In this document: positions 3,739 to 45,367 of the stretch, in pieces
Layout: every line of letters begins with the position of its first letter
Numbering within the stretch: position 1 is the stretch's first letter
IMG/VR virus record: IMGVR_UViG_2881684137_000004
Location: 1-64,000 of that record
Source: a virus
Lineage: Duplodnaviria; Heunggongvirae; Uroviricota; Caudoviricetes
DNA: 64,000 bases
Strand: one strand, 5' to 3'
The notes under the pieces: model-generated
Told to the model about the DNA's origin: nothing
What the model saw: the letters and a program-made list of their open reading frames with translations, nothing else
Database searches by the model: none
Translations under genes and position numbers: made by a program

Positions 3739-6700
3739 TTAAATTACTACTCTATCTTCTCTTACTTTTAAAACTCCTAACTCAGAGATTTCTTCAATTA
3801 GTAGTGTCGTGTGTGGAAACTTGGTATCCTTATAACGGTGAGGTTTGAATTGCGAACCTCTTCTATAACCACAAATGAAAAGTTTGTTTCCTCGTGTGAA
3901 CCAGCTTTTTTCTACAGTAGTCTTCTTCCCATCAGTAGCCACAGATGAAATTTGCTTATTGTAATGTGCAAATTGACCATCATAATACTTAATGTTGACA
4001 ACGCCATCAGGAGTGAGTAGTGACACAGTATGTTTATTTTTATCCTTGTCAAGAACAGTGCCAACGATTGCATCAATTTTAAACTTGGGCTTGTCCACAT
4101 CTCTGAACTTAATTCTTCCTGCAATTACTGGCTTCTCAGGCTGATTCTCGAAATTAACAATTCCATACTTTGCACGATCAATATGAGATAATTCATGAAT
4201 ATTATAATAGAAAGATAGTGAATCCATCTCCCACTTACTAATCGTTCCTGAAGCATGCTTGTCCCACTCATCATCAAATATTTTCTGATTTGTAGATATC
4301 AATACTTCTTCACTACTTAGCCATTCACGAACACCATTCATCAGTTTGTCATATTCTTTTTTAAATATTTTCTCACTAACAACTGGATAACCATCAACAT
4401 AATCAACAATACTTGCATTGGTAAAGTGCTCATTGAAGAACAAACGTGCTCTGTCATCAAGAATATAGAATTTATTCTTAACTTCCTCTTTGAATACTTT
4501 GGTCATTACATATTTGCGAAATTTGAATAGTCGAGAATATAGCTCATGCTCAGGGGGAAGCAATTTCTTTTCAATGATCAAGTTAAAGTTTTGAAGCGTT
4601 AACTTATCTTTGCGTTCATGAATTAAAAAGATAAATTCTTTCATCAGTTGCACTCGTTCTCCAAACGAATCAAAACAACCAGCTTTAATTAGTTGCACCA
4701 TCTGAGACTTCTTAATCAGTCCGGTATTGTACATCCTTTCAATGAAATCATCAAATGAAGCGTATGGTCGATGCTTTATTATAAGTTGGACAGCATCATC
4801 CCCGATTCCAACCAATCCTTTTAGTCCATATACAATTTCTCTGGTTTCGAAATCTGGTTTAAAACCAAAGTGAGCCTTATTGATATTTGGCAAACCAATT
4901 TTCACTCCATGCTGTTGCATATTCCCAATAGCAGAAGCAACTTTACCATAGTCTGTAGCTTTATTCTTTTTATCTTCTTCACTTTCTTCGCCACTAATAT
5001 CTTCTCCACTTGCTGAGTTGACTGTTAGGCAGGCTGTATTCCAGAAAAGCGGATCGTAGTTGTGATAAATATTTAACTCTTGAAGTGCAATAATACTATA
5101 CACAAGAGTGTGAAGAGTACTGAAGCTATATCCGATTTGGCGCTTTATCTGAACATTCCATATGTATTTCAATAAATTTTCTGATGCGTTATTTTCCCTG
5201 CCCTTTTCAAAAAACAATTGCTTAACTTCTTCCAGCACTTTTTTACTTCTCTTTGCTATGGCCTTTCTTAATTTATTAGCTTCCTCAATTGAAAAATTAT
5301 TAATTTGGCTATCCAGGACTATTAACATTAACACTTCTTGAGTATCTGCTACACCATAAATCTTCTTAAGATGGTGTTCCATTAGTTTAATTTCTTCACT
5401 GTTTAAGTTCCATTTATCCAGTTCATCGTACCATTTACTAATATCATTCTTATATTTTACATATAAATCTACTGGCTGCGTTTCTCCTCCATCTGCCATC
5501 AGTCTCATCAAAGAATTGGCAACAGAAGTTTCAAGTATATTCTCCGGTTTAACCTTTTTTGCAGTCTCAACACCAATTTGTGTGTTGAATTGAAATAGAT
5601 CCAAAACTTCTCCCTTTGCCATTCGCTCCCATATCTTGGGATCATCATATGTTAACACATCTGGATGGAAATATTCCTTATATGTATTACGCAAGTTACC
5701 TTTCCATTTTATTTGATCAAACTCCAGAAGCAAATTCATACTTTCTCGAATCTTATCCATTGCTTCAACTGTTAGAAGGTCATATTTAATACCTCCCATA
5801 TACTCGCTATCACCCATAGTGAACTGTGTGATAAATTGTCCATTCGGTGCTTTCATTAAAGCATTTCGTGCAGTTAAATCCTCGTTGTAGATGAAAACAC
5901 CACCTGCATGAATGCTTCGCTTATTTTCAACTCCTTCAATTTGGAGAGCCATTTCTTTTAATAGTGGGTACTTTTCAATTTCATTTATAAATTCTGTTAC
6001 TGGTTTCCTGTCTTCTTCTTCATTTCCATATAAGCAATCGGAAAGACTCCAGTTACTCCCTCTTTCAAAAGGAATGAGAGAGGCAATGTTCATCGCTATG
6101 TCATTATCTATTCCCAGACCTCTACATGACGTTAATACAGCACTTTTAGATTTTTCAGTACCAAAGGTTGCTATGTTTATTACTTTGCGTTCCCCTAATC
6201 TGTTTTTTAGTGCTGTAATAATTTGTTTTCTTTTTCCACCTTCAGAATCGATATCGATATCGGGGTGGTCTGGTCTCGACTTATGCAAGTGACGCCAATG
6301 AGGAAGATTATAAGTTAGTGGATCTACCTGAGTAATATCTAAAAGATAATTGATATAGAATCCAGCAGCACTCCCCCTTCCAGCACCAACAATACTGTTG
6401 CCCCCACAATCATCCCAAATAATATTTATGATCTCTTGAATAGTAACGTAGTATGCCGACATAGATTCACTGAGAGCTTGAGAGATATGCCACAATTCTT
6501 CAAATTCCAAATTAATACGAGCAAGTTTTTCATGAAGACTTTCTGATGTCAGAGTGTTACGTGGAACCTTCTCATCAAATCCATCTTCAATCAGTTTAAT
6601 CAAGTACCTATCTTGATCATCTTCAGAGTATGCGAGTTTCTTAATATATTCATACTTTTCATAAGCTGGTTTAAAAATGTGTCGCACCGAAAAATCAGGA

Positions 6701-7644
6701 AGTTTTATTCTAGGAATTGAAACTGGCTTAAATAGGTCGTAATCTTCTACCATATTGCCAATGAGCATTGTATTGTTTATAGCTTCTTTTGCTTGTTCTA
6801 TAGTGATATTATGTTCATCACAAAGTCTTTCTAACATTTCTTCTTCTGTTTGAACAAAACATGAGGCATAAAAACTCTCGGTTTCCCTGTCTCCTTGCTT
6901 GGAGTTTAAGTATGCACCATGTATAGCTAAATGTTCAGGTCTTAAAAAATGTGCATCAGTGGCAACTATAGTTTTCAACCCATAGGCTTGAGCAATCAAA
7001 ATTGCTTTTTTATTGAAATCTTTTTGCTCTACACTGAAAGAAGGCTGTAACTCTACAAAAAACTTTTCTTTGCCAAATACATCGATACACCATTTCATAA
7101 ACCCATTAATCTTTTTCTTTTGCTCTGTGATTCGATCTGTATCATTTATTTTTTCAGCCTCAATTAATTCTAATGTATGTATCGCTAGTTCAGATCCTAA
7201 GCAAGCTGTTGTTGCGATCAAATGCCCTTTATTTTTACTTACTATTTCAGCAAGAATGTGTTTTTCAGTAGGTACACGTTCCATAAGTCCTGTTTTAAAA
7301 CTTTGGCTCCAGGCAATTGAAGATAACTGTCGCAACTGATCATGGCCTTCTAAATCACAAGCAAGGAGAATAAAGTGTGGGAATTTAGTTACACCTGATT
7401 GGTAGTTATCTCTGACTTCTGATAACGAATCTACCAAGTAAATTTCATTCCCAAGTATTAGCTTAAAATCTTCCTTCATCTCTTTCTTTTTTTTCATTTC
7501 TTTCACTGTTTTTATTGCATTAACATGTGAAGATAAAGCTTCGTGATCAGTTATAGCTAGTCCATTATAGCCTAAGTCAACGGCAGTTTTAAGCAGAGCA
7601 TCAGTTTTATTGATACAATCCAATAAACGGATGTTGCTCCCCAT
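3739..7644 (-). CDS. dnaE: DNA polymerase III alpha subunit (DnaE-type, phage-encoded; cf. SPbeta YorL)
   Basis: 1301 aa. N-terminal PHP domain (GLAITDHEALSSHV), polymerase core, C-terminal OB-fold region. Confidence 0.9.
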   Translation of the reverse strand: MGSNIRLLDCINKTDALLKTAVDLGYNGLAITDHEALSSHVNAIKTVKEMKKKKEMKEDFKLILGNEIYLVDSLSEVRDNYQSGVTKFPHFILLACDLEGHDQLRQLSSIAWSQSFKTGLMERVPTEKHILAEIVSKNKGHLIATTACLGSELAIHTLELIEAEKINDTDRITEQKKKINGFMKWCIDVFGKEKFFVELQPSFSVEQKDFNKKAILIAQAYGLKTIVATDAHFLRPEHLAIHGAYLNSKQGDRETESFYASCFVQTEEEMLERLCDEHNITIEQAKEAINNTMLIGNMVEDYDLFKPVSIPRIKLPDFSVRHIFKPAYEKYEYIKKLAYSEDDQDRYLIKLIEDGFDEKVPRNTLTSESLHEKLARINLEFEELWHISQALSESMSAYYVTIQEIINIIWDDCGGNSIVGAGRGSAAGFYINYLLDITQVDPLTYNLPHWRHLHKSRPDHPDIDIDSEGGKRKQIITALKNRLGERKVINIATFGTEKSKSAVLTSCRGLGIDNDIAMNIASLIPFERGSNWSLSDCLYGNEEEDRKPVTEFINEIEKYPLLKEMALQIEGVENKRSIHAGGVFIYNEDLTARNALMKAPNGQFITQFTMGDSEYMGGIKYDLLTVEAMDKIRESMNLLLEFDQIKWKGNLRNTYKEYFHPDVLTYDDPKIWERMAKGEVLDLFQFNTQIGVETAKKVKPENILETSVANSLMRLMADGGETQPVDLYVKYKNDISKWYDELDKWNLNSEEIKLMEHHLKKIYGVADTQEVLMLIVLDSQINNFSIEEANKLRKAIAKRSKKVLEEVKQLFFEKGRENNASENLLKYIWNVQIKRQIGYSFSTLHTLVYSIIALQELNIYHNYDPLFWNTACLTVNSASGEDISGEESEEDKKNKATDYGKVASAIGNMQQHGVKIGLPNINKAHFGFKPDFETREIVYGLKGLVGIGDDAVQLIIKHRPYASFDDFIERMYNTGLIKKSQMVQLIKAGCFDSFGERVQLMKEFIFLIHERKDKLTLQNFNLIIEKKLLPPEHELYSRLFKFRKYVMTKVFKEEVKNKFYILDDRARLFFNEHFTNASIVDYVDGYPVVSEKIFKKEYDKLMNGVREWLSSEEVLISTNQKIFDDEWDKHASGTISKWEMDSLSFYYNIHELSHIDRAKYGIVNFENQPEKPVIAGRIKFRDVDKPKFKIDAIVGTVLDKDKNKHTVSLLTPDGVVNIKYYDGQFAHYNKQISSVATDGKKTTVEKSWFTRGNKLFICGYRRGSQFKPHRYKDTKFPHTTLLIEEISELGVLKVREDRVVI

Positions 7645-7761: not shown

Positions 7762-8370
7762 ATGTTAAATGTTAAAATACAAATTACCGATGTTTCTAAA
7801 GGACTGAATTCTGAAATAGAGCTATCTGAAGCAGACAACCTTTCAAAACTAGTCATTATCCAAAATGTATTTAAATTATTTGGAGTAGATAACAACATAA
7901 TGGATACTGTAAATACATTTAATAATGCTGGAAAAGCTTATAAATCGTTTTTTGAAAAAGTAAAGCCAATAGAACCTATCGAGCCTGTAGTAAAAGATAA
8001 TAAGATCATTGCTACTGATTTAAAGGAATCTCTAATTAAAAATCATGAAAGTTTAAAAAATACTTACAAATCAAAGGATGACTCACCTGATTATTATCGA
8101 ACAGGAATAAAAGTAGATAGTAATAGCAGCCCAAGGTATAAACTTCGTTATAAATGCGATAAGTGTCACGATAATGGAATACACTATGTTTATGCGAATT
8201 CAAAATTTACATGGTGTCATTCGTGTGATCATAAACTGATAGTGAAACCTGCAATTCCTAAATATCACAGGACAGTCGTTAAACAAGAAGAAATCAATGA
8301 AAGTTATAGAGATAGTCTTGGAAATTTTTTCATAGCTGGAAACTATAGAGACACTAGTTTAAATTGGTAA
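7762..8370 (+). CDS. hypothetical Cys/His-rich protein (plus-strand moron)
   Basis: RBS AGGAGGG. CDKCHDNG...CHSCDHK zinc-binding-like motif. Followed by a terminator. Confidence 0.6.
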   Translation: MLNVKIQITDVSKGLNSEIELSEADNLSKLVIIQNVFKLFGVDNNIMDTVNTFNNAGKAYKSFFEKVKPIEPIEPVVKDNKIIATDLKESLIKNHESLKNTYKSKDDSPDYYRTGIKVDSNSSPRYKLRYKCDKCHDNGIHYVYANSKFTWCHSCDHKLIVKPAIPKYHRTVVKQEEINESYRDSLGNFFIAGNYRDTSLNW

Positions 8371-24888: not shown

Positions 24889-25344
24889 TCATTTTCCTTC
24901 CAATTTGTAAAGGGTAACTTCATAATCTTCGAATACCTCAGCTATTATACCCTTTACTACATTCCAATCAGCTCCACCTCGATCAGAACCAATTTTATAA
25001 GGAAGTGCTACTGAATAATTATGTCTTTTAGCAAAAAATTTGAGATCCGTTAACGTTGCTTTTAAAGCAGACAGATCGGTGAATTGCTTTCCATAACCAT
25101 AACCATCTTGAGCAAAGAGATTTGCAACAATTTTGGAGTAATTGTCCACTGCTGTGAACTGACATTTTCCCAGTATTTTTGGAGAGTGCATCTCTATAAA
25201 AGCTTTATATGTAACAAGCAAATCACTATACTTGTCACTAAGCTGTTTAGCAACACCGGAACCCATTACACCCTTACAGTTTACTTGATGGCCAATAATA
25301 TCTTCAGTTGCCTGTAATAAATCACCTTCTATAAGTTTTATCAA
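24889..25344 (-). CDS. macro domain protein (ADP-ribose binding / ADP-ribosyl hydrolase family)
   Basis: IEGDLL...HQVNCKGVMGSGVA matches the macrodomain G-D-I...N...GGGV motif pattern (cf. YmdB/MacroD). Confidence 0.75.
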   Translation of the reverse strand: MIKLIEGDLLQATEDIIGHQVNCKGVMGSGVAKQLSDKYSDLLVTYKAFIEMHSPKILGKCQFTAVDNYSKIVANLFAQDGYGYGKQFTDLSALKATLTDLKFFAKRHNYSVALPYKIGSDRGGADWNVVKGIIAEVFEDYEVTLYKLEGK

Positions 25345-29985: not shown

Positions 29986-31086
29986 TTAGTTAATTCTGAA
30001 GTTTTCATAAGAATCATAAAGCTGCTCAAATATTTCCCTTCCTTTATCGACCGGAGAATCTTTCTCTTCCTCGGAAAGTAAGTCTTCGCTATCCCACAAA
30101 GCAAAAACACTTCGATTCATACCAAACTTATCACCTTGTTTCTTAACATCTTCAATCCCTTTGTCCTTGTCCATTGCAATTATTACTCTGATCCCTGAGC
30201 CTAAGTCTTTGATTAACTTCACTTGTTGAGCGCTCAAATCGTCGCCGCTTATGGCTACACAGTTAGCATAACCATACTGTGTAGCTAACCAGCAGCTCTT
30301 TTCTCCTTCAAAAATTATAACTTCTTTTCTAATTAAAATATGAGTTAACGCTTTGTGGAAATTGTATAGTTCAATCACTTTATTGAAGTTATACAAATAC
30401 ATGAACTTATAAATCCCTTTTTTGTCGTAATCTTTGTGAATTGTCCTTCCTTTGATAGATACGATATCTCCATATTGATTGTGAACAGGAAAAATGATTC
30501 GTTCAGACAAAACATCAACGCCTATTTGAAAATCCACTTGTGTCTCTTTATCAATTCCTTCGCTAACATACTCTCGATACGGCTTCATCACATATTGATC
30601 TAAGACTGAATCTTCATATATTTTGTTTTCACTATATTCTTTAATGCTACTTTTCTTTCGACTGTTTTTGACCGACTTCAGCCAACTAAGATGATCAATC
30701 TTAACCGGATTTTTCAAATCAAAAGCTACTTTTCCCTTATAGTGCTTTAATTCATAGCCTAAGACATCACAAATCCATTGTTTTGCTTCATATAATTTAC
30801 GTTTTCTGCTTTCTTCAGTGTAAGAATTGAATTCTATGTATGAAACAAGGCCATAGATATCTATATTGCTTATACTCCTCGATCTAATACGACATTGCAA
30901 ATACTCTGTATTGTACACCTGGACAGACCTTGGATTATCGGAATTAAATTTGTCAGGTAATTGTGCTTCGAACCTATTTGACCTATCTACGATGTTTTTG
31001 CAGCCCAATTTTAACAGCAGTTTACTGATTTGATTCTCATTATAAATTTTATTTTTAATCTCGATTAAGTCATTTTCACTGCTCAA
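29986..31086 (-). CDS. DNA primase, DnaG-like TOPRIM domain
   Basis: TOPRIM signature IIFEGEKS...AMDKDKGIED. Confidence 0.75.
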   Translation of the reverse strand: MSSENDLIEIKNKIYNENQISKLLLKLGCKNIVDRSNRFEAQLPDKFNSDNPRSVQVYNTEYLQCRIRSRSISNIDIYGLVSYIEFNSYTEESRKRKLYEAKQWICDVLGYELKHYKGKVAFDLKNPVKIDHLSWLKSVKNSRKKSSIKEYSENKIYEDSVLDQYVMKPYREYVSEGIDKETQVDFQIGVDVLSERIIFPVHNQYGDIVSIKGRTIHKDYDKKGIYKFMYLYNFNKVIELYNFHKALTHILIRKEVIIFEGEKSCWLATQYGYANCVAISGDDLSAQQVKLIKDLGSGIRVIIAMDKDKGIEDVKKQGDKFGMNRSVFALWDSEDLLSEEEKDSPVDKGREIFEQLYDSYENFRIN

Positions 31087-35825: not shown

Positions 35826-36105
35826 TTCTACTCCTCCTTTTTTGAATGTTTTGTAATACTTCTATAAACTCATCTAGTGTAGCATCTGAAATTTCTCCAT
35901 TATTACCATGAATTTCTCTTTCTAGTCTTTCTAACGATAGCAGGTCATTTTGTGCATCTGTTATTCTCAACAGTTCATCATTGGACGATTTAAGTCTGTT
36001 GTAATTAATGAAGACCATATGATAAGAGGCTATCAGAAGAATGATAATTAACGCGATAATGATTCTTTTTAAATACACTTCGAAAAAAATTGAATACTTT
36101 TTCAT
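35818..36105 (-). CDS. hypothetical membrane-anchored protein
   Basis: ORF with N-terminal TM helix. Confidence 0.45.
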   Translation of the reverse strand: MKKYSIFFEVYLKRIIIALIIILLIASYHMVFINYNRLKSSNDELLRITDAQNDLLSLERLEREIHGNNGEISDATLDEFIEVLQNIQKRRSRNE

Positions 36106-36107
36106 AC

Positions 36108-36323
36108 TTATCTGCCCTCCTCTTTAAGTTTCTTCATTCTCAAATATTCATTAAATGCTATTTGAAAATTTACTTTCCCTGTTCTTCTGCCTGCGTACAC
36201 TATCATGTAATTTATTCGATCTTCATTTTCTACAAACGCGTTTACTAGTTGCTTTTGCCATTGTAAGAGTTTGTATCCAAAATGTTTCTCAATCCAGTCA
36301 ATCATCTCATTTGATTTATTCAT
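36108..36323 (-). CDS. hypothetical protein (71 aa from internal ATG)
   Basis: RBS AGGAGT precedes ATG (MNKSNEM...). The longer form overlaps the upstream gene. Confidence 0.4.
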   Translation of the reverse strand: MNKSNEMIDWIEKHFGYKLLQWQKQLVNAFVENEDRINYMIVYAGRRTGKVNFQIAFNEYLRMKKLKEEGR

Positions 36324-36753
36324 TAGTACTACTCCTGCTAAAAATCTTTTTAATCCACTTTGCAAATGAAATCGATGAGCGCTCTTCAAAGTTGTGACAT
36401 CCATTTTCACTCTTTTCATATGAGCATCTAAATGCCGAACTTGATGTATCGTTATTAAGACTACAATTCTTACAGACAACCTCGCTTAGCTCTTGTCTGT
36501 CTTCTTTGTTCATTATATAAAAATCAACTTTTCTTATTTTCAAATAATTGTATAAGTATACGATTCGACTGTATAACTGTTCTTCCGCAATTATATTCCA
36601 CTTGTAATATCTCTTTGGTTCCTTACAAATAATTGGCTGCTTATTATCAATGTAAGCCTTAAGCTCGTCCAGTGTATGATAATCTTCAATCACAAACGTA
36701 TCTTCAGTTCTTCCTCCAAAAGCTTGCTCACCGCTACACTTAACAATGATCAT
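36316..36753 (-). CDS. hypothetical protein
   Basis: ORF. Confidence 0.5.
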   Translation of the reverse strand: MIIVKCSGEQAFGGRTEDTFVIEDYHTLDELKAYIDNKQPIICKEPKRYYKWNIIAEEQLYSRIVYLYNYLKIRKVDFYIMNKEDRQELSEVVCKNCSLNNDTSSSAFRCSYEKSENGCHNFEERSSISFAKWIKKIFSRSSTNE

Positions 36754-36758
36754 CTGCT

Positions 36759-37445
36759 TTAAGCCTCCTTATTTACATACCAGCAAACATCTAAGCAATT
36801 GTCCCAACATACATTTTTAGTTTCTATTTCATGATTTTTAAATTCTCTAAAAAAGCCATATTTTAAATCGTCTTTCTCTAAATCTGACAATGTTGCATCT
36901 GCTTCGATCTTTAAATAAAGTTCTTCTTGGGTATTCGCATAGAAACCACCATCTCTTCCATCAGTGCAACCATATAAAACTGAATACTTATAAACCTTTT
37001 TAATTGTGTTTTCAAATATTCTTTTCAGATCATGAGAGTATCCAAATCTATTCTTATTTATGCTAATACTCTTTATTAGATTCCCGTCATCATGTCGCAT
37101 TGTTGCTGCATGCCAATCGCAAAACATTTCTACGATATCAAACAAATTCATATCTTGAATGCCATTGGGATAATGTTCAGGATGATGAGAATTTTTTGAA
37201 TAGTGATGTTTTAGTGCCACATCCATTTCATTCAAAAATGATTTGTATTCATCAGATCCATATGTGCTGTTCTTGAGTTTTGGTGTAAATTCGGTAAAGA
37301 TTTCAAGCTCAGGAGACTTTAATTTTGATTGGTCATGTTTTAGTGAACGATCAAGAATTTCCCTAGAAAACCCAATCATAAACTCTCGAACTTGTGCAAT
37401 ATGTTCTCTTGTATCTCTAATACAGTCGTCCTGTGAGTATGTCAT
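36759..37445 (-). CDS. putative HD-domain-like metal-dependent phosphohydrolase
   Basis: H...HD...H...H...D pattern (REH, KHDQSK, HHYSKNSHHPEH, DWHAA...HDD). Confidence 0.45.
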   Translation of the reverse strand: MTYSQDDCIRDTREHIAQVREFMIGFSREILDRSLKHDQSKLKSPELEIFTEFTPKLKNSTYGSDEYKSFLNEMDVALKHHYSKNSHHPEHYPNGIQDMNLFDIVEMFCDWHAATMRHDDGNLIKSISINKNRFGYSHDLKRIFENTIKKVYKYSVLYGCTDGRDGGFYANTQEELYLKIEADATLSDLEKDDLKYGFFREFKNHEIETKNVCWDNCLDVCWYVNKEA

Positions 37446-37462
37446 TTGTTATTCCTTCCTCT

Positions 37463-37783
37463 TTAAAAGTAAGTATTCGGTCGATATTTTAATGTTTCTT
37501 CCTCTAATTTTCTCTGCTCTGTGTAATGCTTATAATAACGATCAATATCGTTTTCAACAAAATGTTTCAGGATTTTTCCATCACCGAATTCATCATAAAT
37601 TACTTTATCAGGCATTCGTTCTAATATGTATTTAATAGCTCTGTTCGCTGTTTCATAAAATCTTCCTTTGAATACTCTTGGCTCTAAGTACTTGTTCTCA
37701 TCAAGATTAATTCTTTGTATAATCACTTGTTCTGGATAACGTTCAGCGCCAAGGATGTATAGCATATTCAAATTAATAATCAC
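37463..37783 (-). CDS. hypothetical protein
   Basis: ORF. Confidence 0.5.
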   Translation of the reverse strand: MIINLNMLYILGAERYPEQVIIQRINLDENKYLEPRVFKGRFYETANRAIKYILERMPDKVIYDEFGDGKILKHFVENDIDRYYKHYTEQRKLEEETLKYRPNTYF

Positions 37784-37873
37784 CTCTTATATATATTCCA
37801 CTTATAATATCTTAATTTGTAAATATAATTACTACTTTTCTGTACTTATAAATCAATTACAGTTACATCTCCT

Positions 37874-38155
37874 TTACTCTTGATAACAATACGAGAATGT
37901 GGTGTAATCAGTTAATTCTTGTGGCACCCTGACTAGATAAAAAGTGTTTGCAGGAATATATTTGCTATACTGTACCCTCACTAATCCATGTTTTGTACGT
38001 AATTTTGCTATATTTTTCATAGTCTCAAGTGAGGTAATCAGAACAGTGCTCTCTATTTTATTGCCAGCAGCTACAAACTTATCAATATCTTGATGATCAT
38101 ATTCAGGAATAAGTTGGTTCATTAGTTCGTTTAGTTTATTTATATCTAATGTCAT
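37874..38155 (-). CDS. hypothetical protein
   Basis: ORF. Confidence 0.5.
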   Translation of the reverse strand: MTLDINKLNELMNQLIPEYDHQDIDKFVAAGNKIESTVLITSLETMKNIAKLRTKHGLVRVQYSKYIPANTFYLVRVPQELTDYTTFSYCYQE

Positions 38156-38262
38156 TAAACAACCTCCCTTTTATATTGAATGTTGATAACCGTTCTATTG
38201 TTCACTTCCATTATGCTCTATACTAATTTGTGGTAGAATATTAAAATAATATTGTAATTGGA

Positions 38263-38955
38263 GTGATACTTTTGTTAAAAAACAGAGTTCTATATCAACT
38301 AGCAATAATGCAATTTCATTCCCTTAAAAGCTACTCTGAAGAAATGGAGGATTCAATTAAGTCGAGTGCAGCTAAATATCGAGAACACCTAAATGAAGAA
38401 GCTAAAAGTATTGATTCGTTTGATGATCAATTCTGGGAATATGGGTCTGATCGTCTAAAAGAGCTTCATATTGATTATCCCAATCATCTTCGTTCATCGT
38501 TACTAATCACTTGTATTACTATCGTAGAAAAGACGTTGACGAACATTCATTATGATATTAAAAATGAAACCGATATTAACATTGTAGGTTTAAATAGTAA
38601 AAAGTTGAAAGGCAGTACTATTAACAAAGTTGTAACTAGTATTCACTCTGATGAAATCTCACTTCATGAACTTATCAGCAGCGAGGAATGGAAAAATTTA
38701 AAATTCTACATTGACATTAGAAATCGTGTCGTCCATGATGCTGGCCTTGTCCATCCTAAAAAGCACGAAGAACTGTTTGGTCGTATTAAGCAAATTGAAT
38801 CGCAAGGTTCTGGTATTGTCGGCTTGAATACCTATCATGAAATAACATTTTCAGACAAGTTCTCTGAGAAAGTTATTTCAGATTGTCAGACCGTTTTGGA
38901 GCAATTCACCACTGTCATAAATAATCACTTCAAATCTAATCCTAAGCCTCTCTAA
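38263..38955 (+). CDS. HEPN-like domain protein (plus-strand moron; candidate abortive-infection / RNase-type factor)
   Basis: C-terminal FYIDIRNRVVHDAG fits the HEPN Rx4H motif (R-N-x-x-x-H). Opposite orientation to the surrounding operon, with its own terminator. Likely TTG/GTG start. Confidence 0.55.
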   Translation: MILLLKNRVLYQLAIMQFHSLKSYSEEMEDSIKSSAAKYREHLNEEAKSIDSFDDQFWEYGSDRLKELHIDYPNHLRSSLLITCITIVEKTLTNIHYDIKNETDINIVGLNSKKLKGSTINKVVTSIHSDEISLHELISSEEWKNLKFYIDIRNRVVHDAGLVHPKKHEELFGRIKQIESQGSGIVGLNTYHEITFSDKFSEKVISDCQTVLEQFTTVINNHFKSNPKPL

Positions 38956-38967
38956 GAGGCTTTTTAT
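38944..38967 (+). terminator. rho-independent terminator
   Basis: AAGCCTCT-CTA-AGAGGCTT followed by TTTTT. Confidence 0.7.
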
Positions 38968-39014
38968 GTATCACGGTATGAATTTAATGTTCAATATCAT
39001 CTTCCTCATTATAA

Positions 39015-39254
39015 CTAATACCCTTTCACAATGTTGCCTTGATATACGTCAAACCATTCATATGAATATCGTTCGAGTTTGCCCTTGTCATTTACAACCT
39101 CTATGTCACAATAAGAAGTTTTGCATACGTAAACTTTACCTTCTGTCAAATCAAAGTCGCTTGTATTTGCAATTAGCAAATCGCCAGAGCTTACTTTCAC
39201 CTCTTGACTATGGCAATTGATAGGAATAATATCGCCCCATCTGTCGGTCTTCAT
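39015..39254 (-). CDS. hypothetical protein
   Basis: Strong RBS AGGAGGAAAAGAA before ATG. Confidence 0.55.
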   Translation of the reverse strand: MKTDRWGDIIPINCHSQEVKVSSGDLLIANTSDFDLTEGKVYVCKTSYCDIEVVNDKGKLERYSYEWFDVYQGNIVKGY

Positions 39255-39504
39255 TTCTTTTCCTCCTATGAAACATGGATTTCAAATTGTTCAACGATTA
39301 ATGCTCTTATTGAACATTTTATTAAACTTTCTTCTTTTCTTTCTGTTTTTCATTAAAGTGAATGACTAGAATATATAGCTTTTGATACCATTTTAGTCTC
39401 AAACCGAAGAATTGTTCAAATAGCTCTATTGGGTGTTTATCTGCCCACTTATAAAACTCATGTGCGCTCGACATGTAAGTTTCTTGATTATCTTTCCTCA
39501 TATC

Positions 39505-39756
39505 TTATTCTGTCCACCATTTGAAATTTCTCATGGCGATGTCGTTTTCTTCTATATTGTTTCGTGCTTCTTGGACTGCATTTTTATATTTCTCAATAGA
39601 TTTTTCTGCCCAATATAATTCAGACAACCGATCAGAAAGCTCATCCTGAAGTCTAAGAGACATGTTTTCTAATTCTGTAAATTGACGCGCGCACTCACAC
39701 TCAGGGCAACTTTCGGTTTCGTACTCCACTTCACATTCTACACAAGTTTTATTCAT
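39505..39756 (-). CDS. hypothetical zinc-ribbon protein
   Basis: CVEC...CPEC motif. Confidence 0.5.
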   Translation of the reverse strand: MNKTCVECEVEYETESCPECECARQFTELENMSLRLQDELSDRLSELYWAEKSIEKYKNAVQEARNNIEENDIAMRNFKWWTE

Positions 39757-39770
39757 TTTTGTTCCTCCGG

Positions 39771-40088
39771 TTAACTTTTCATTTCGCTAACATCCACTTC
39801 GCATTCACTATCTTCGCTAATTATTTTTATATTTATGGCTCTATTCACTTCTTTATCATTAGCAAACCAGGGCTTCTTACCATCATTTAAAGGCACCCCA
39901 TATCCTTCAATATATCTTTCACCGAACCTTGCGCGGTATTGTGCAATGTTTTCTGCGTGTTCTTCTAGGTCATGCAAGTCAGCAAAGTATTCTCGATAAC
40001 CCTTCATCCATTCCTCATCCAGTACACTTTCATCAAGTTCGACTATGTATTCGTCTGTTCGCTGTACTTTACATAAGTATCTCTTCAA
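39771..40088 (-). CDS. hypothetical protein
   Basis: ORF. Confidence 0.5.
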   Translation of the reverse strand: MKRYLCKVQRTDEYIVELDESVLDEEWMKGYREYFADLHDLEEHAENIAQYRARFGERYIEGYGVPLNDGKKPWFANDKEVNRAINIKIISEDSECEVDVSEMKS

Positions 40089-40104
40089 CCATCCCTACCT
40101 CGAT

Positions 40105-40305
40105 TCAACTGTTGTGTGTGCGCCTTTCCAGGCAATTCATCATTAATTCCTTTTGATGCTCTAATTCTCTTTCTGCTTCTCTTTGCCTAGTAAAATTATA
40201 CTCACTAAGATCATGATTCCAATCGCATTTCTCACAAACGTTCCCATCAAAGGTTTTCTCGATACGAACCCTTCCACAATTCTCACACTCATAGTTTAAA
40301 TACAT
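40105..40305 (-). CDS. hypothetical zinc-ribbon protein
   Basis: CENC...CEKC motif. Confidence 0.45.
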   Translation of the reverse strand: MYLNYECENCGRVRIEKTFDGNVCEKCDWNHDLSEYNFTRQREAERELEHQKELMMNCLERRTHNS

Positions 40306-40341
40306 TTAATCACCTCAACATACTTGAAATCTGGACTCCAT

Positions 40342-40569
40342 CTATTTTCCAATTAAATATGATAGCTCAGGGACAGATAGTTCATTCAACATAATATTTG
40401 TAAGTGGAACTTCTTCGACTATAGTAGTTCTACACCTTATGTCATTAAGTTTATAGTTAATGTCTTTTTGTGAGAGATAGATATCAATTGTTGACTTATC
40501 CTCTGATAACAATAATATGCTGCTTGTTTTATTTCTAGTTTCATAAAACACTCTAAATGCCTTCTTCAT
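40342..40569 (-). CDS. hypothetical protein
   Basis: ORF. Confidence 0.45.
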   Translation of the reverse strand: MKKAFRVFYETRNKTSSILLLSEDKSTIDIYLSQKDINYKLNDIRCRTTIVEEVPLTNIMLNELSVPELSYLIGK

Positions 40570-40620
40570 TTATAAATCCTCCTTTCGTTATTCACCTTCC
40601 CGTGAAATGCATGTTTTATA

Positions 40621-41004
40621 CTAAATTAATTGTTTATCCTTAAAATGTTTTGTAGTAATTTCCCACGCTTTTGCACCATCTTCTTTGCCTTTGAGGAACA
40701 ATTCATTTTCTGATCGACCTAAATCAATATCATAAGCTCCAAAGTCAAATCCATCAATAACTCCATTTATATACTCTGGTAAAAACTCATGTTCTGAGAT
40801 TAAGGTATCAATTATTAAGTGTTCATATTCAAAACTATTCAAATCTGAAAATTTTTCTTTTGAAATGATGGATTCTCCAATACACATTGCTGTCAATAAG
40901 CAACCACAATCAGTTTCTGTGTCGTAATATTCCTTTTGTATTGGCTTAATATCTGCTTCTTCATACCAAATTGCAACTTTGTTAAGATCAATTCTCTTAG
41001 CCAT
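40621..41004 (-). CDS. hypothetical protein
   Basis: ORF. Confidence 0.5.
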   Translation of the reverse strand: MAKRIDLNKVAIWYEEADIKPIQKEYYDTETDCGCLLTAMCIGESIISKEKFSDLNSFEYEHLIIDTLISEHEFLPEYINGVIDGFDFGAYDIDLGRSENELFLKGKEDGAKAWEITTKHFKDKQLI

Positions 41005-44845: not shown

Positions 44846-45367
44846 TTGAAATACTTAATGAAAGATAAAGTTAAGGGCTTAGTAGTGGGTCTATCAATTG
44901 GCTTAATGTTTAGTGGTGCAGTTGCCTTAGCAGCTGACTATAGAACCACAATTCAACCAATGTTTAAAGAATTAAATTTTTACTTTAATGGTGATCTTAA
45001 AGTTATTGATGAAGCAATTGCACACAATGGAACCACCTACGTGCCGGTCAGAACTATTGCAAAAGCAGTAGGCACTACAGTAAAACCGGATTTTGATCGA
45101 CAAAGTATCTACTTAGGAAAAGAACCTAAAAACAAAGGGCTGACACTAGAACAAGCTATGAGTAAAGTTTGGAACAAATATAAGAACGAGCTTCCTCCTA
45201 GCTATAAGTATATGATGCTAGATAGCTTAACTGAAACAGGTGAATACAGAATAAAGATTTATGCAGTTGTAATTGATGACTATAAGACAGGATTGTCACA
45301 TACCACCACATATAATTTTTATGATGTAAATAAACACACAGGGAAAATAACTCCTGAATTCGATTAA
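44846..45367 (+). CDS. secreted protein with N-terminal signal peptide (plus-strand moron)
   Basis: MKDKVKGLVVGLSIGLMFSGAVALAADY signal sequence. GTTYVPVRTIAKAVG resembles copper-amine-oxidase N-terminal-like cell-wall domains. RBS GGGAGG. Confidence 0.6.
   Translation: MKYLMKDKVKGLVVGLSIGLMFSGAVALAADYRTTIQPMFKELNFYFNGDLKVIDEAIAHNGTTYVPVRTIAKAVGTTVKPDFDRQSIYLGKEPKNKGLTLEQAMSKVWNKYKNELPPSYKYMMLDSLTETGEYRIKIYAVVIDDYKTGLSHTTTYNFYDVNKHTGKITPEFD

Follow-up and report, generated by a model that had tools for sequence, protein, structure and literature searches.

A stand-alone gene with a predicted HEPN fold, carried as a reverse-oriented cassette in SPbeta-like phages

The window analysed here is a stretch of 64,000 nucleotides, positions 1 to 64,000 of the IMG/VR virus record IMGVR_UViG_2881684137_000004 (Caudoviricetes), and it carries a plus-strand gene for a 227-residue protein with a predicted HEPN fold. 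The gene stands alone among minus-strand genes, has homologues at different backbone positions in four more SPbeta-like elements, and no partner gene was found for it. By analogy with characterised systems, we consider it most likely (a probability of about 0.6) that it encodes a prophage-carried, single-protein abortive-infection or superinfection-exclusion factor, a solo RNase of the HEPN superfamily. The analogy is with HepS and Tha, two partner-less, prophage-borne HEPN RNases whose defence activity has been proven (PMC13043305, PMC11087260). Solo prophage HEPN defence proteins are therefore already known; what is new is an uncatalogued family that has no Pfam, NCBIfam or PHROG model.

Motif, predicted fold and family

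We assembled the homologue set by an exhaustive HMMER search of 1.84 billion cluster representatives, which returned 108 proteins at an expectation value (E) of 1e-3 or below, 15 at 1e-10 or below and six at 1e-30 or below, nearly all of them 200-250 residues long and aligned end to end. The pattern R[NDH]xxxH occurs in 103 of these 108 representatives and begins with RN in 102; of the five that lack it, two are spurious long low-complexity proteins, two are fragments and one is a variant. The family amounts to about 106 of the 1.84 billion cluster representatives. In an alignment of 91 sequences with a mean column identity of 19%, R150 and H155 are the only invariant columns, N151, E26, P70, E86 and W140 are conserved at 90% or more, and E86 is invariant within the close clade. 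A bare R-x4-H often arises by chance, so it is this conservation across the family that makes the motif significant. A word-indexed homologue search found the identical NCBI protein only and, when run with a profile, four proteins only. An exact look-up of protein P0001 returned no record. The codons of the putative active-site residues are as follows.

38527..38529 (+): codon of E86, the conserved acidic residue of helix 2, located from the alignment and model helix 51-99
38719..38736 (+): codons of R150-N-R-V-V-H155, the Rx4H catalytic motif (R150 at 38719-38721, H155 at 38734-38736)

AlphaFold2 gave a model with a predicted local distance difference test score (pLDDT) of 96.4 and a predicted template modelling score (pTM) of 0.91 when supplied with the 91-sequence alignment; run on the single sequence with no alignment it gave a pLDDT of 38 and an unusable model. 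The alignment-based model is made up of these elements.

Residues 2-45: helix 1
Residues 51-99: helix 2
Residues 100-137: insert with two short helices
Residues 138-156: helix 3
Residues 157-165: loop
Residues 166-178: extra helix
Residues 183-193: beta-hairpin
Residues 197-222: helix 4

The published definition of the HEPN superfamily places the Rx4H motif at the C-terminal end of helix 3 with a loop after it, a polar N, D or H directly after the conserved R, and a conserved acidic residue, often as Ex3[KR], in helix 2 (PMC3710099). In the model, helix 138-156 has R150-x4-H155 at its C-terminal end, with the loop at 157-165 coming next; N151 supplies the polar residue after R150; E86 lies in helix 51-99, with the Ex3[KR] spacing absent (E86-K-T-L-T); and helices 2 and 3 are separated by the insert at residues 100-137, in agreement with the definition. 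The case for a HEPN fold follows from these four features taken together. On the evidence of the model and the alignment, we assign the window protein to the HEPN superfamily and to no curated family within it. HEPN proteins have a metal-independent RNase activity and a composite active site formed by a dimer (PMC3710099), and the window protein is probably a metal-independent RNase as well. Foldseek found no significant match to the model in the PDB, and a structure search of BFVD gave one significant match, to an uncharacterised Myoviridae protein.

The nearest sequence profile to the family is the PADLOC model PDLC03820 'RTasHEPN' (DRT), matched by 72 of the 91 members with a best E of 6e-9; the family consensus matches it at E 4.4e-11, with residues 120-209 falling on profile positions 55-142 of 148. 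A few members match the Csx1/Csm6, CARF-HEPN and Cas13b models. Pfam HEPN_RiboL-PSP (PF18735) is matched by 14 of the 91 members at E<0.01 (best 8.2e-5, below the gathering threshold), and the family consensus scores 17.6 bits against a threshold of 28.4, which places the family outside PF18735; against DUF3644 (PF12358) the consensus scores 19 bits where 27.6 are needed. The window protein itself has no match to PF18735 and matches DUF3644 at E 1.3 only. These two families are the best Pfam neighbours. Because the window protein's own profile matches are marginal, the HEPN assignment rests on the family and not on the single sequence. Unlike RTasHEPN, the family has long N-terminal helices that lie outside the match, and no reverse transcriptase adjoins the gene in the window or in any related locus. 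We would describe the family as a remote relative of RTasHEPN whose N-terminal helical hairpin is distinct and far longer, not as a member of it. RTasHEPN itself, we infer, corresponds to HEPN-like neighbour cluster 79, which adjoins the UG22 reverse transcriptases (Mestre et al. 2022, PMC9226505).

A first-pass annotation, made by a model from the letters of the window, had matched a C-terminal IRNRVVHDAG segment to the HEPN Rx4H motif and had proposed structure prediction and searches of the HEPN_MAE, RiboL-PSP and Abi families as checks. The motif match holds across nearly all of the family and the alignment-based model agrees with the HEPN definition. The segment occupies residues 149-158, about two-thirds of the way along the protein and not at its extreme C-terminus, and the curated thresholds of the named families are not reached.

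A promoter-gene-terminator cassette at five phage sites

The gene and the elements around it can be listed as follows; the promoter-like site and the ribosome-binding site were read straight from the sequence and the terminator was found by a pattern scan.

38156..38271 (+): divergent intergenic region upstream of the HEPN gene, with an extended -10 promoter-like site and a ribosome-binding site
38229-38239 (+): extended -10 promoter-like site TGTGgTAGAAT, with TGgTAGAAT at 38231-38239, 33 nucleotides upstream of the start codon
38261-38264 (+): ribosome-binding site GGAG
38272..38955 (+): HEPN coding sequence, 227 residues from TTG; an alternative GTG at 38263 would give 230 residues
38944..38967 (+): intrinsic terminator AAGCCTCT-CTA-AGAGGCTT (38944-38962) followed by a T-run (TTTTT), with an 8-bp stem that includes 4 G-C pairs and the TAA stop codon in the loop

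The TTG at 38272 is the likelier start because GGAG stands 8 nucleotides upstream of it, because the identical NCBI protein EBB07_28340 ('Paenibacillaceae bacterium', 467-kb contig) has 227 residues, and because the closest homologue also starts with TTG, behind TGGAGTG. Both neighbouring genes, at 37874-38155 and 39015-39254, are on the minus strand and have strong ribosome-binding sites; the HEPN gene is therefore divergent from the upstream one and convergent with the downstream one. A plus-strand open reading frame (ORF) at 38966-39220 was set aside as the antisense shadow of the gene downstream. A naive ORF call gives the minus strand of the window 97 of 114 ORFs, or 53.9 kb against 4.6 kb on the plus strand, and only three to four plus-strand ORFs have a credible ribosome-binding site.

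The terminator is the sole terminator-like site found by the pattern scan on either strand of 37500-39600, and read on the minus strand its hairpin has no T-run after it. A hairpin with a T-run is present at the equivalent place in all four related phage loci and overlaps the stop codon in three of them. The upstream region of the closest homologue contains a similar TGtGATAAT ahead of its TGGAGTG and TTG start, so that the extended -10 element and the arrangement of ribosome-binding site and TTG are common to the two closest loci. By its sequence, the locus is a self-contained transcription unit in which a single gene stands between a promoter-like site and an intrinsic terminator.

The 1301 residues encoded by the ORF at 3739-7644 (-) align along their entire length with the SPbeta YorL DNA polymerase at 57% identity, and further window genes specify ribonucleotide reductase, ThyA, DHFR, a RecJ-like protein, a Band_7 protein, a DnaB-like helicase and a primase. 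From the YorL-like polymerase and these other genes, we conclude that the window belongs to a large temperate phage, SPbeta-like and resident in a Paenibacillaceae genome. A megablast search with the 5 kb at 36000-41000 found no nucleotide match in a phage collection, and tblastn with the HEPN protein found no match in 50,697 phage records, the SPbeta group included, or in 72,556 plasmids. Locus searches of viral contigs with alignment A5 or protein P0009, and of metagenomes with alignment A3, returned no loci. The close clade (36-54% identity) is found in four more SPbeta-like elements.

L001: Paenibacillus chitinolyticus, in a 119.6-kb IMG/VR contig and also on a genome contig of about 1 Mb
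L002: P. dendrobii, in a 138-kb IMG/VR contig and also on a genome contig of about 1 Mb
L012: a 51.9-kb contig, with the closest homologue
L013: a 167.6-kb contig whose backbone genes are the same as those of the window

In all five phage loci the HEPN gene opposes minus-strand genes on both sides. It is the sole plus-strand gene at its site in the window, L012 and L013, and is accompanied by one adjacent plus-strand gene in each of L001 and L002. Its backbone position is different in each of the five: in L013, for example, it lies between the gene for the ribonucleotide reductase large subunit and Band_7, and the window copy is about 20 kb from those genes. No flanking gene is shared among the five loci within four genes on either side, even at E<0.1. 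The variable position, the constant reverse orientation and the terminator together identify a mobile, moron-like cassette of promoter, gene and terminator. A moron should have transcription signals of its own, and here the terminator is found in five of five loci and the extended -10 element is shared with L012; it should also come and go among related phages at varying positions, and here the flanks differ in all five loci and the gene is absent from the 50,697 phage records. By these marks of architecture and distribution we class the cassette as a putative moron, a status that its base composition does not reflect.

Searches of the window's neighbouring genes and large ORFs with PADLOC and Pfam gave no reverse transcriptase, MNT or other defence component, and the flanking genes are unrelated small minus-strand ORFs without family matches. 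No partner gene was found in the window, nor in any of about 60 related loci. These include 45 loci with a family member among 50 metagenomic loci that were retrieved with a hand-made degenerate DNA pattern; the 45 have no recurrent neighbours, except among near-duplicate contigs, and no reverse transcriptase adjoins the family member in any of them or in the other related loci. Ten large metagenomic neighbours have unrelated domains or none, among them type IV secretion coupling, kinase-TPR and ankyrin-repeat proteins, a trypsin-like peptidase, DUF4365 and an IS110 transposase. Two candidate partners were rejected. A recurring neighbour of 350-410 residues proved to be a set of mutually unrelated proteins with heterogeneous domains, and a reverse transcriptase (DRT/UG22) was discarded because the window's only DRT-labelled matches fall on a DnaG-like primase at 29986-31086. 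Elsewhere in the family, one gene is alone amid genes for TonB-dependent receptors and glycoside hydrolases (P0110) and another between an ABC transporter and a chemoreceptor (P0012); one lies after a type I restriction-modification S subunit (P0024) and one near a weak TIR_2 protein (P0017). Defence-type neighbours of some distant members (weak TIR_2, type I restriction-modification S subunit, DUF4365) are at L011 1943-3241, L014 629-1876 and L022 4602-5654. Judged by these neighbourhoods, the family is genuinely stand-alone.

The first-pass description of the locus is borne out by these results. It had seen a private terminator on an oppositely oriented gene in a stretch with almost all genes on the minus strand, and the strand bias is as described and both properties of the gene are kept in the four related phage loci; it had seen no obvious partner gene, which now extends to about 60 loci. 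Its 230-residue gene exists as an ORF at 38263-38955 from GTG, and the likelier product is three residues shorter. Its moron stands on the promoter-like site, the terminator and the variable position; a distinct G+C content is not part of the picture (0.339 against 0.337).

A near-perfect inverted repeat of 21 nucleotides lies within the HEPN coding sequence at 38838-38880 (+), with a folding energy of -18.4 kcal/mol and a z-score of -4.4 relative to shuffled sequences. A weaker version is present at the same codons in L012, where, judged by eye, one C-G pair has changed to U-A, and the hairpin is absent from the three more distant phage homologues. We found no tandem repeats, ToxI-like repeats, cassette-flanking repeats or Rfam elements at the cassette.

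A defence role and its alternatives

HepS ('HEPN Solo') of the Salmonella prophage Gifsy-1 has no partner and is a constitutive, auto-inhibited tetramer; a phage tail-tip peptide opens it, and the RNase cuts tRNA at the anticodon (PMC13043305). The window protein resembles it: each is one small HEPN protein whose RX4H motif is canonical and whose gene lies at an accessory position of a prophage, with no conserved partner or inhibitor gene. Being stand-alone, prophage-borne and partner-less, the window protein is of the HepS kind in organisation, a likeness that does not prove membership. Among the eight annotated coding sequences checked in the Gifsy-1 LT2 record, none has R100x4H105. Tha, from Staphylococcus aureus prophages such as 80alpha, is a tail-activated HEPN RNase that opposing transcription switches off in the lytic cycle (PMC11087260). 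Tha-1 differs from the window protein in its 301 residues, in which a C-terminal HEPN domain follows a separate N-terminal domain that could not be modelled. Tha also belongs to the cI lysogeny operon and has an antisense inhibitor gene, ith, as its counterpart, whereas in the window it is the HEPN gene itself that is reverse-oriented and no small neighbour is conserved. Both proteins are probably unrelated to the window protein. By analogy, HepS is the most likely working model, that of a constitutive, auto-inhibited protein triggered by a phage protein.

On this model, the cassette, inserted backwards into the early/replication gene array of an SPbeta-like temperate phage, would use its own promoter for expression in the lysogen, and the protein would stay inactive until an infecting phage provided the trigger. 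The active site would combine three residues where helix 3 ends (R150, N151 and H155) with E86 from helix 2, and a second subunit of a homo-oligomer would probably complete it across the interface, the arrangement of other HEPN enzymes. Once triggered, the protein would cleave RNA, either tRNA or bulk RNA, and so stop phage production as HepS and Tha do. The unusually long hairpin of N-terminal helices 2-45 and 51-99 is a candidate regulatory or sensor surface, as is the small beta-hairpin at 183-193. During lytic growth of the resident phage, read-through transcription antisense to the gene might switch it off and so avoid self-killing. Such silencing is suggested by the conserved reverse orientation and by the lack of a minus-strand terminator across the gene, and it offers a plausible route to self-immunity that needs no inhibitor.

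Several observations weigh against this interpretation. The window protein by itself has no Pfam, NCBIfam or PHROG match, its best profile match being a marginal one to PADLOC RTasHEPN (E 0.008 over 40 residues), and a profile search against PDB sequences recovered no HEPN chain at E up to 10. A generic promoter scan of the upstream region did not list the extended -10 site because of its weak -35 hexamer. Nor does composition give any sign of recent acquisition, the gene having a G+C content of 0.339 and a third-position value (GC3) of 0.303, against means for the window's genes of 0.337 (standard deviation 0.027) and 0.293 (standard deviation 0.045). Some distant family members are found in ordinary chromosomal or metabolic contexts with no defence genes near them, and a function in the lytic cycle would be equally possible for a gene reversed within a lytic operon.

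The last point leads to the proposal that the protein is a lytic-cycle phage RNase, produced as the phage infects or is induced, that breaks down or processes RNA of the host or the phage in host shut-off or transcript turnover. The setting of the gene amid early and replication genes (helicases, primase, DUF5662 and many small ORFs) would suit such a role, as would its fully phage-like composition, its conserved catalytic motif and the fact that no lysogeny-module genes were identified beside it. We nevertheless judge it unlikely, since the conserved reverse orientation and the private promoter-like site and terminator, at a position that shifts among five phages, are those of an accessory cassette and not of the backbone; tblastn found the gene in no sequenced SPbeta-group phage; and distant relatives occur in non-phage chromosomal or mobile-element contexts. 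The cassette could alternatively specify the toxin of an addiction or toxin-antitoxin module that stabilises the prophage, with an unrecognised antitoxin that might be a small protein, a structured RNA or an antisense transcript produced by minus-strand read-through. This is distinctly improbable given that about 60 loci contain no MNT gene or other conserved neighbour and that the cassette has neither tandem or ToxI-like repeats nor an Rfam match; the hairpin inside the coding sequence is common to the closest homologue only. HepT toxins of the type VII toxin-antitoxin system HepT/MntA (HEPN-MNT) carry RX4HXY. The window protein has RNRVVH-D-A, with D and A after H155 and no Y two residues after H; it is also about 90 residues longer and has no adjacent MNT nucleotidyltransferase.

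HEPN domains of some Csm6 proteins can destroy cyclic-oligoadenylate second messengers. An anti-defence factor would use its HEPN nuclease on such a messenger or on host immune RNA and shield the phage from type III CRISPR or similar immunity, an idea prompted by the phage-borne close clade and by the few members that match Csx1/Csm6 and CARF-HEPN (best E 1.3e-5 and 1.4e-6). Those matches are confined to one to three of the 91 members and cover only the shared HEPN core, the protein has no CARF or other ligand-binding domain, and distant members in bacterial chromosomes sit by restriction-modification, TIR, DUF4365 and insertion sequence (IS) elements, which fits host-side or mobile-element defence better; we therefore think this role very unlikely. 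There is even less to recommend the view that the protein is no HEPN-type enzyme, either a generic helical bundle with structural or ligand-binding R, N and H residues or a case of convergent resemblance. The motif sequence, its place where helix 3 ends, the acidic residue of helix 2 and the insert between helices 2 and 3 would hardly coincide without homology, and 72 of the 91 members match a HEPN defence profile.

The structural parts of the first-pass interpretation are all supported, and its proposal of lysogen protection or superinfection exclusion by a prophage-carried HEPN protein is a suggestion with good precedent. More tentatively, and with considerable doubt, the locus may represent a new class of single-protein phage sensor in which an elongated coiled-coil stalk of helices 1 and 2 and the beta-hairpin sense the trigger, and in which a cassette that SPbeta-like phages carry from site to site, always antisense to a lytic operon, is automatically silenced by lytic read-through. 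If this were true, it would be a built-in, inhibitor-free answer to prophage autoimmunity, distinct from Ith, the inhibitor of Tha, and from the way in which Gifsy prophages evade HepS, through silent variants of the tail-tip protein J. If the gene encodes only another abortive-infection RNase the gain is modest, namely one more family for the defence catalogues. Solo prophage HEPN proteins such as HepS and Tha have lately proved to be powerful sensors and effectors by themselves. The locus bears on two questions, how many independent solo HEPN families there are and how prophages survive their own copy. We regard the conserved antisense placement as its most interesting point. With five reverse-oriented copies at five backbone sites, antisense control is approachable by experiment; SPbeta, the type phage of the group, infects the genetically tractable Bacillus subtilis.

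Other genes of the window

A DUF5662 member of 228 residues (E 3.5e-36) is encoded at 36759-37445 (-), two genes from the HEPN cassette. The primase-like protein at 29986-31086 (-) matches PADLOC RT_UG29 (E 3e-7) and RTasDnaG-like (E 7e-6) through its DnaG-like domain, and is a likely source of false 'DRT' calls in the automated defence annotation of such phages.

Two further reverse-oriented genes are present in the window. The one at 7762-8370 (+), next to the YorL-like polymerase gene, has a good ribosome-binding site and encodes a 202-residue protein that matches phrog_34931 (unknown function) at E 1e-42; the protein has no Pfam or PDB sequence match, and the scan found no terminator for the gene. 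The other, at 44846-45367 (+), encodes a 173-residue protein with a Cu_amine_oxidN1 domain. In the P. dendrobii prophage its homologue (L002 7405-7893, 43% identity) immediately precedes the HEPN homologue and shares its strand, and some phages may transmit the two accessory genes together. In that P. dendrobii element a gene for a Macro-domain protein (L002 8993-9481, Pfam E 1.4e-5) is next but one after the HEPN homologue, with a 79-residue ORF between them. The window ORF at 24889-25344 (-) is 56% identical to this protein, and such a phage-encoded macro domain might act on ADP-ribose.

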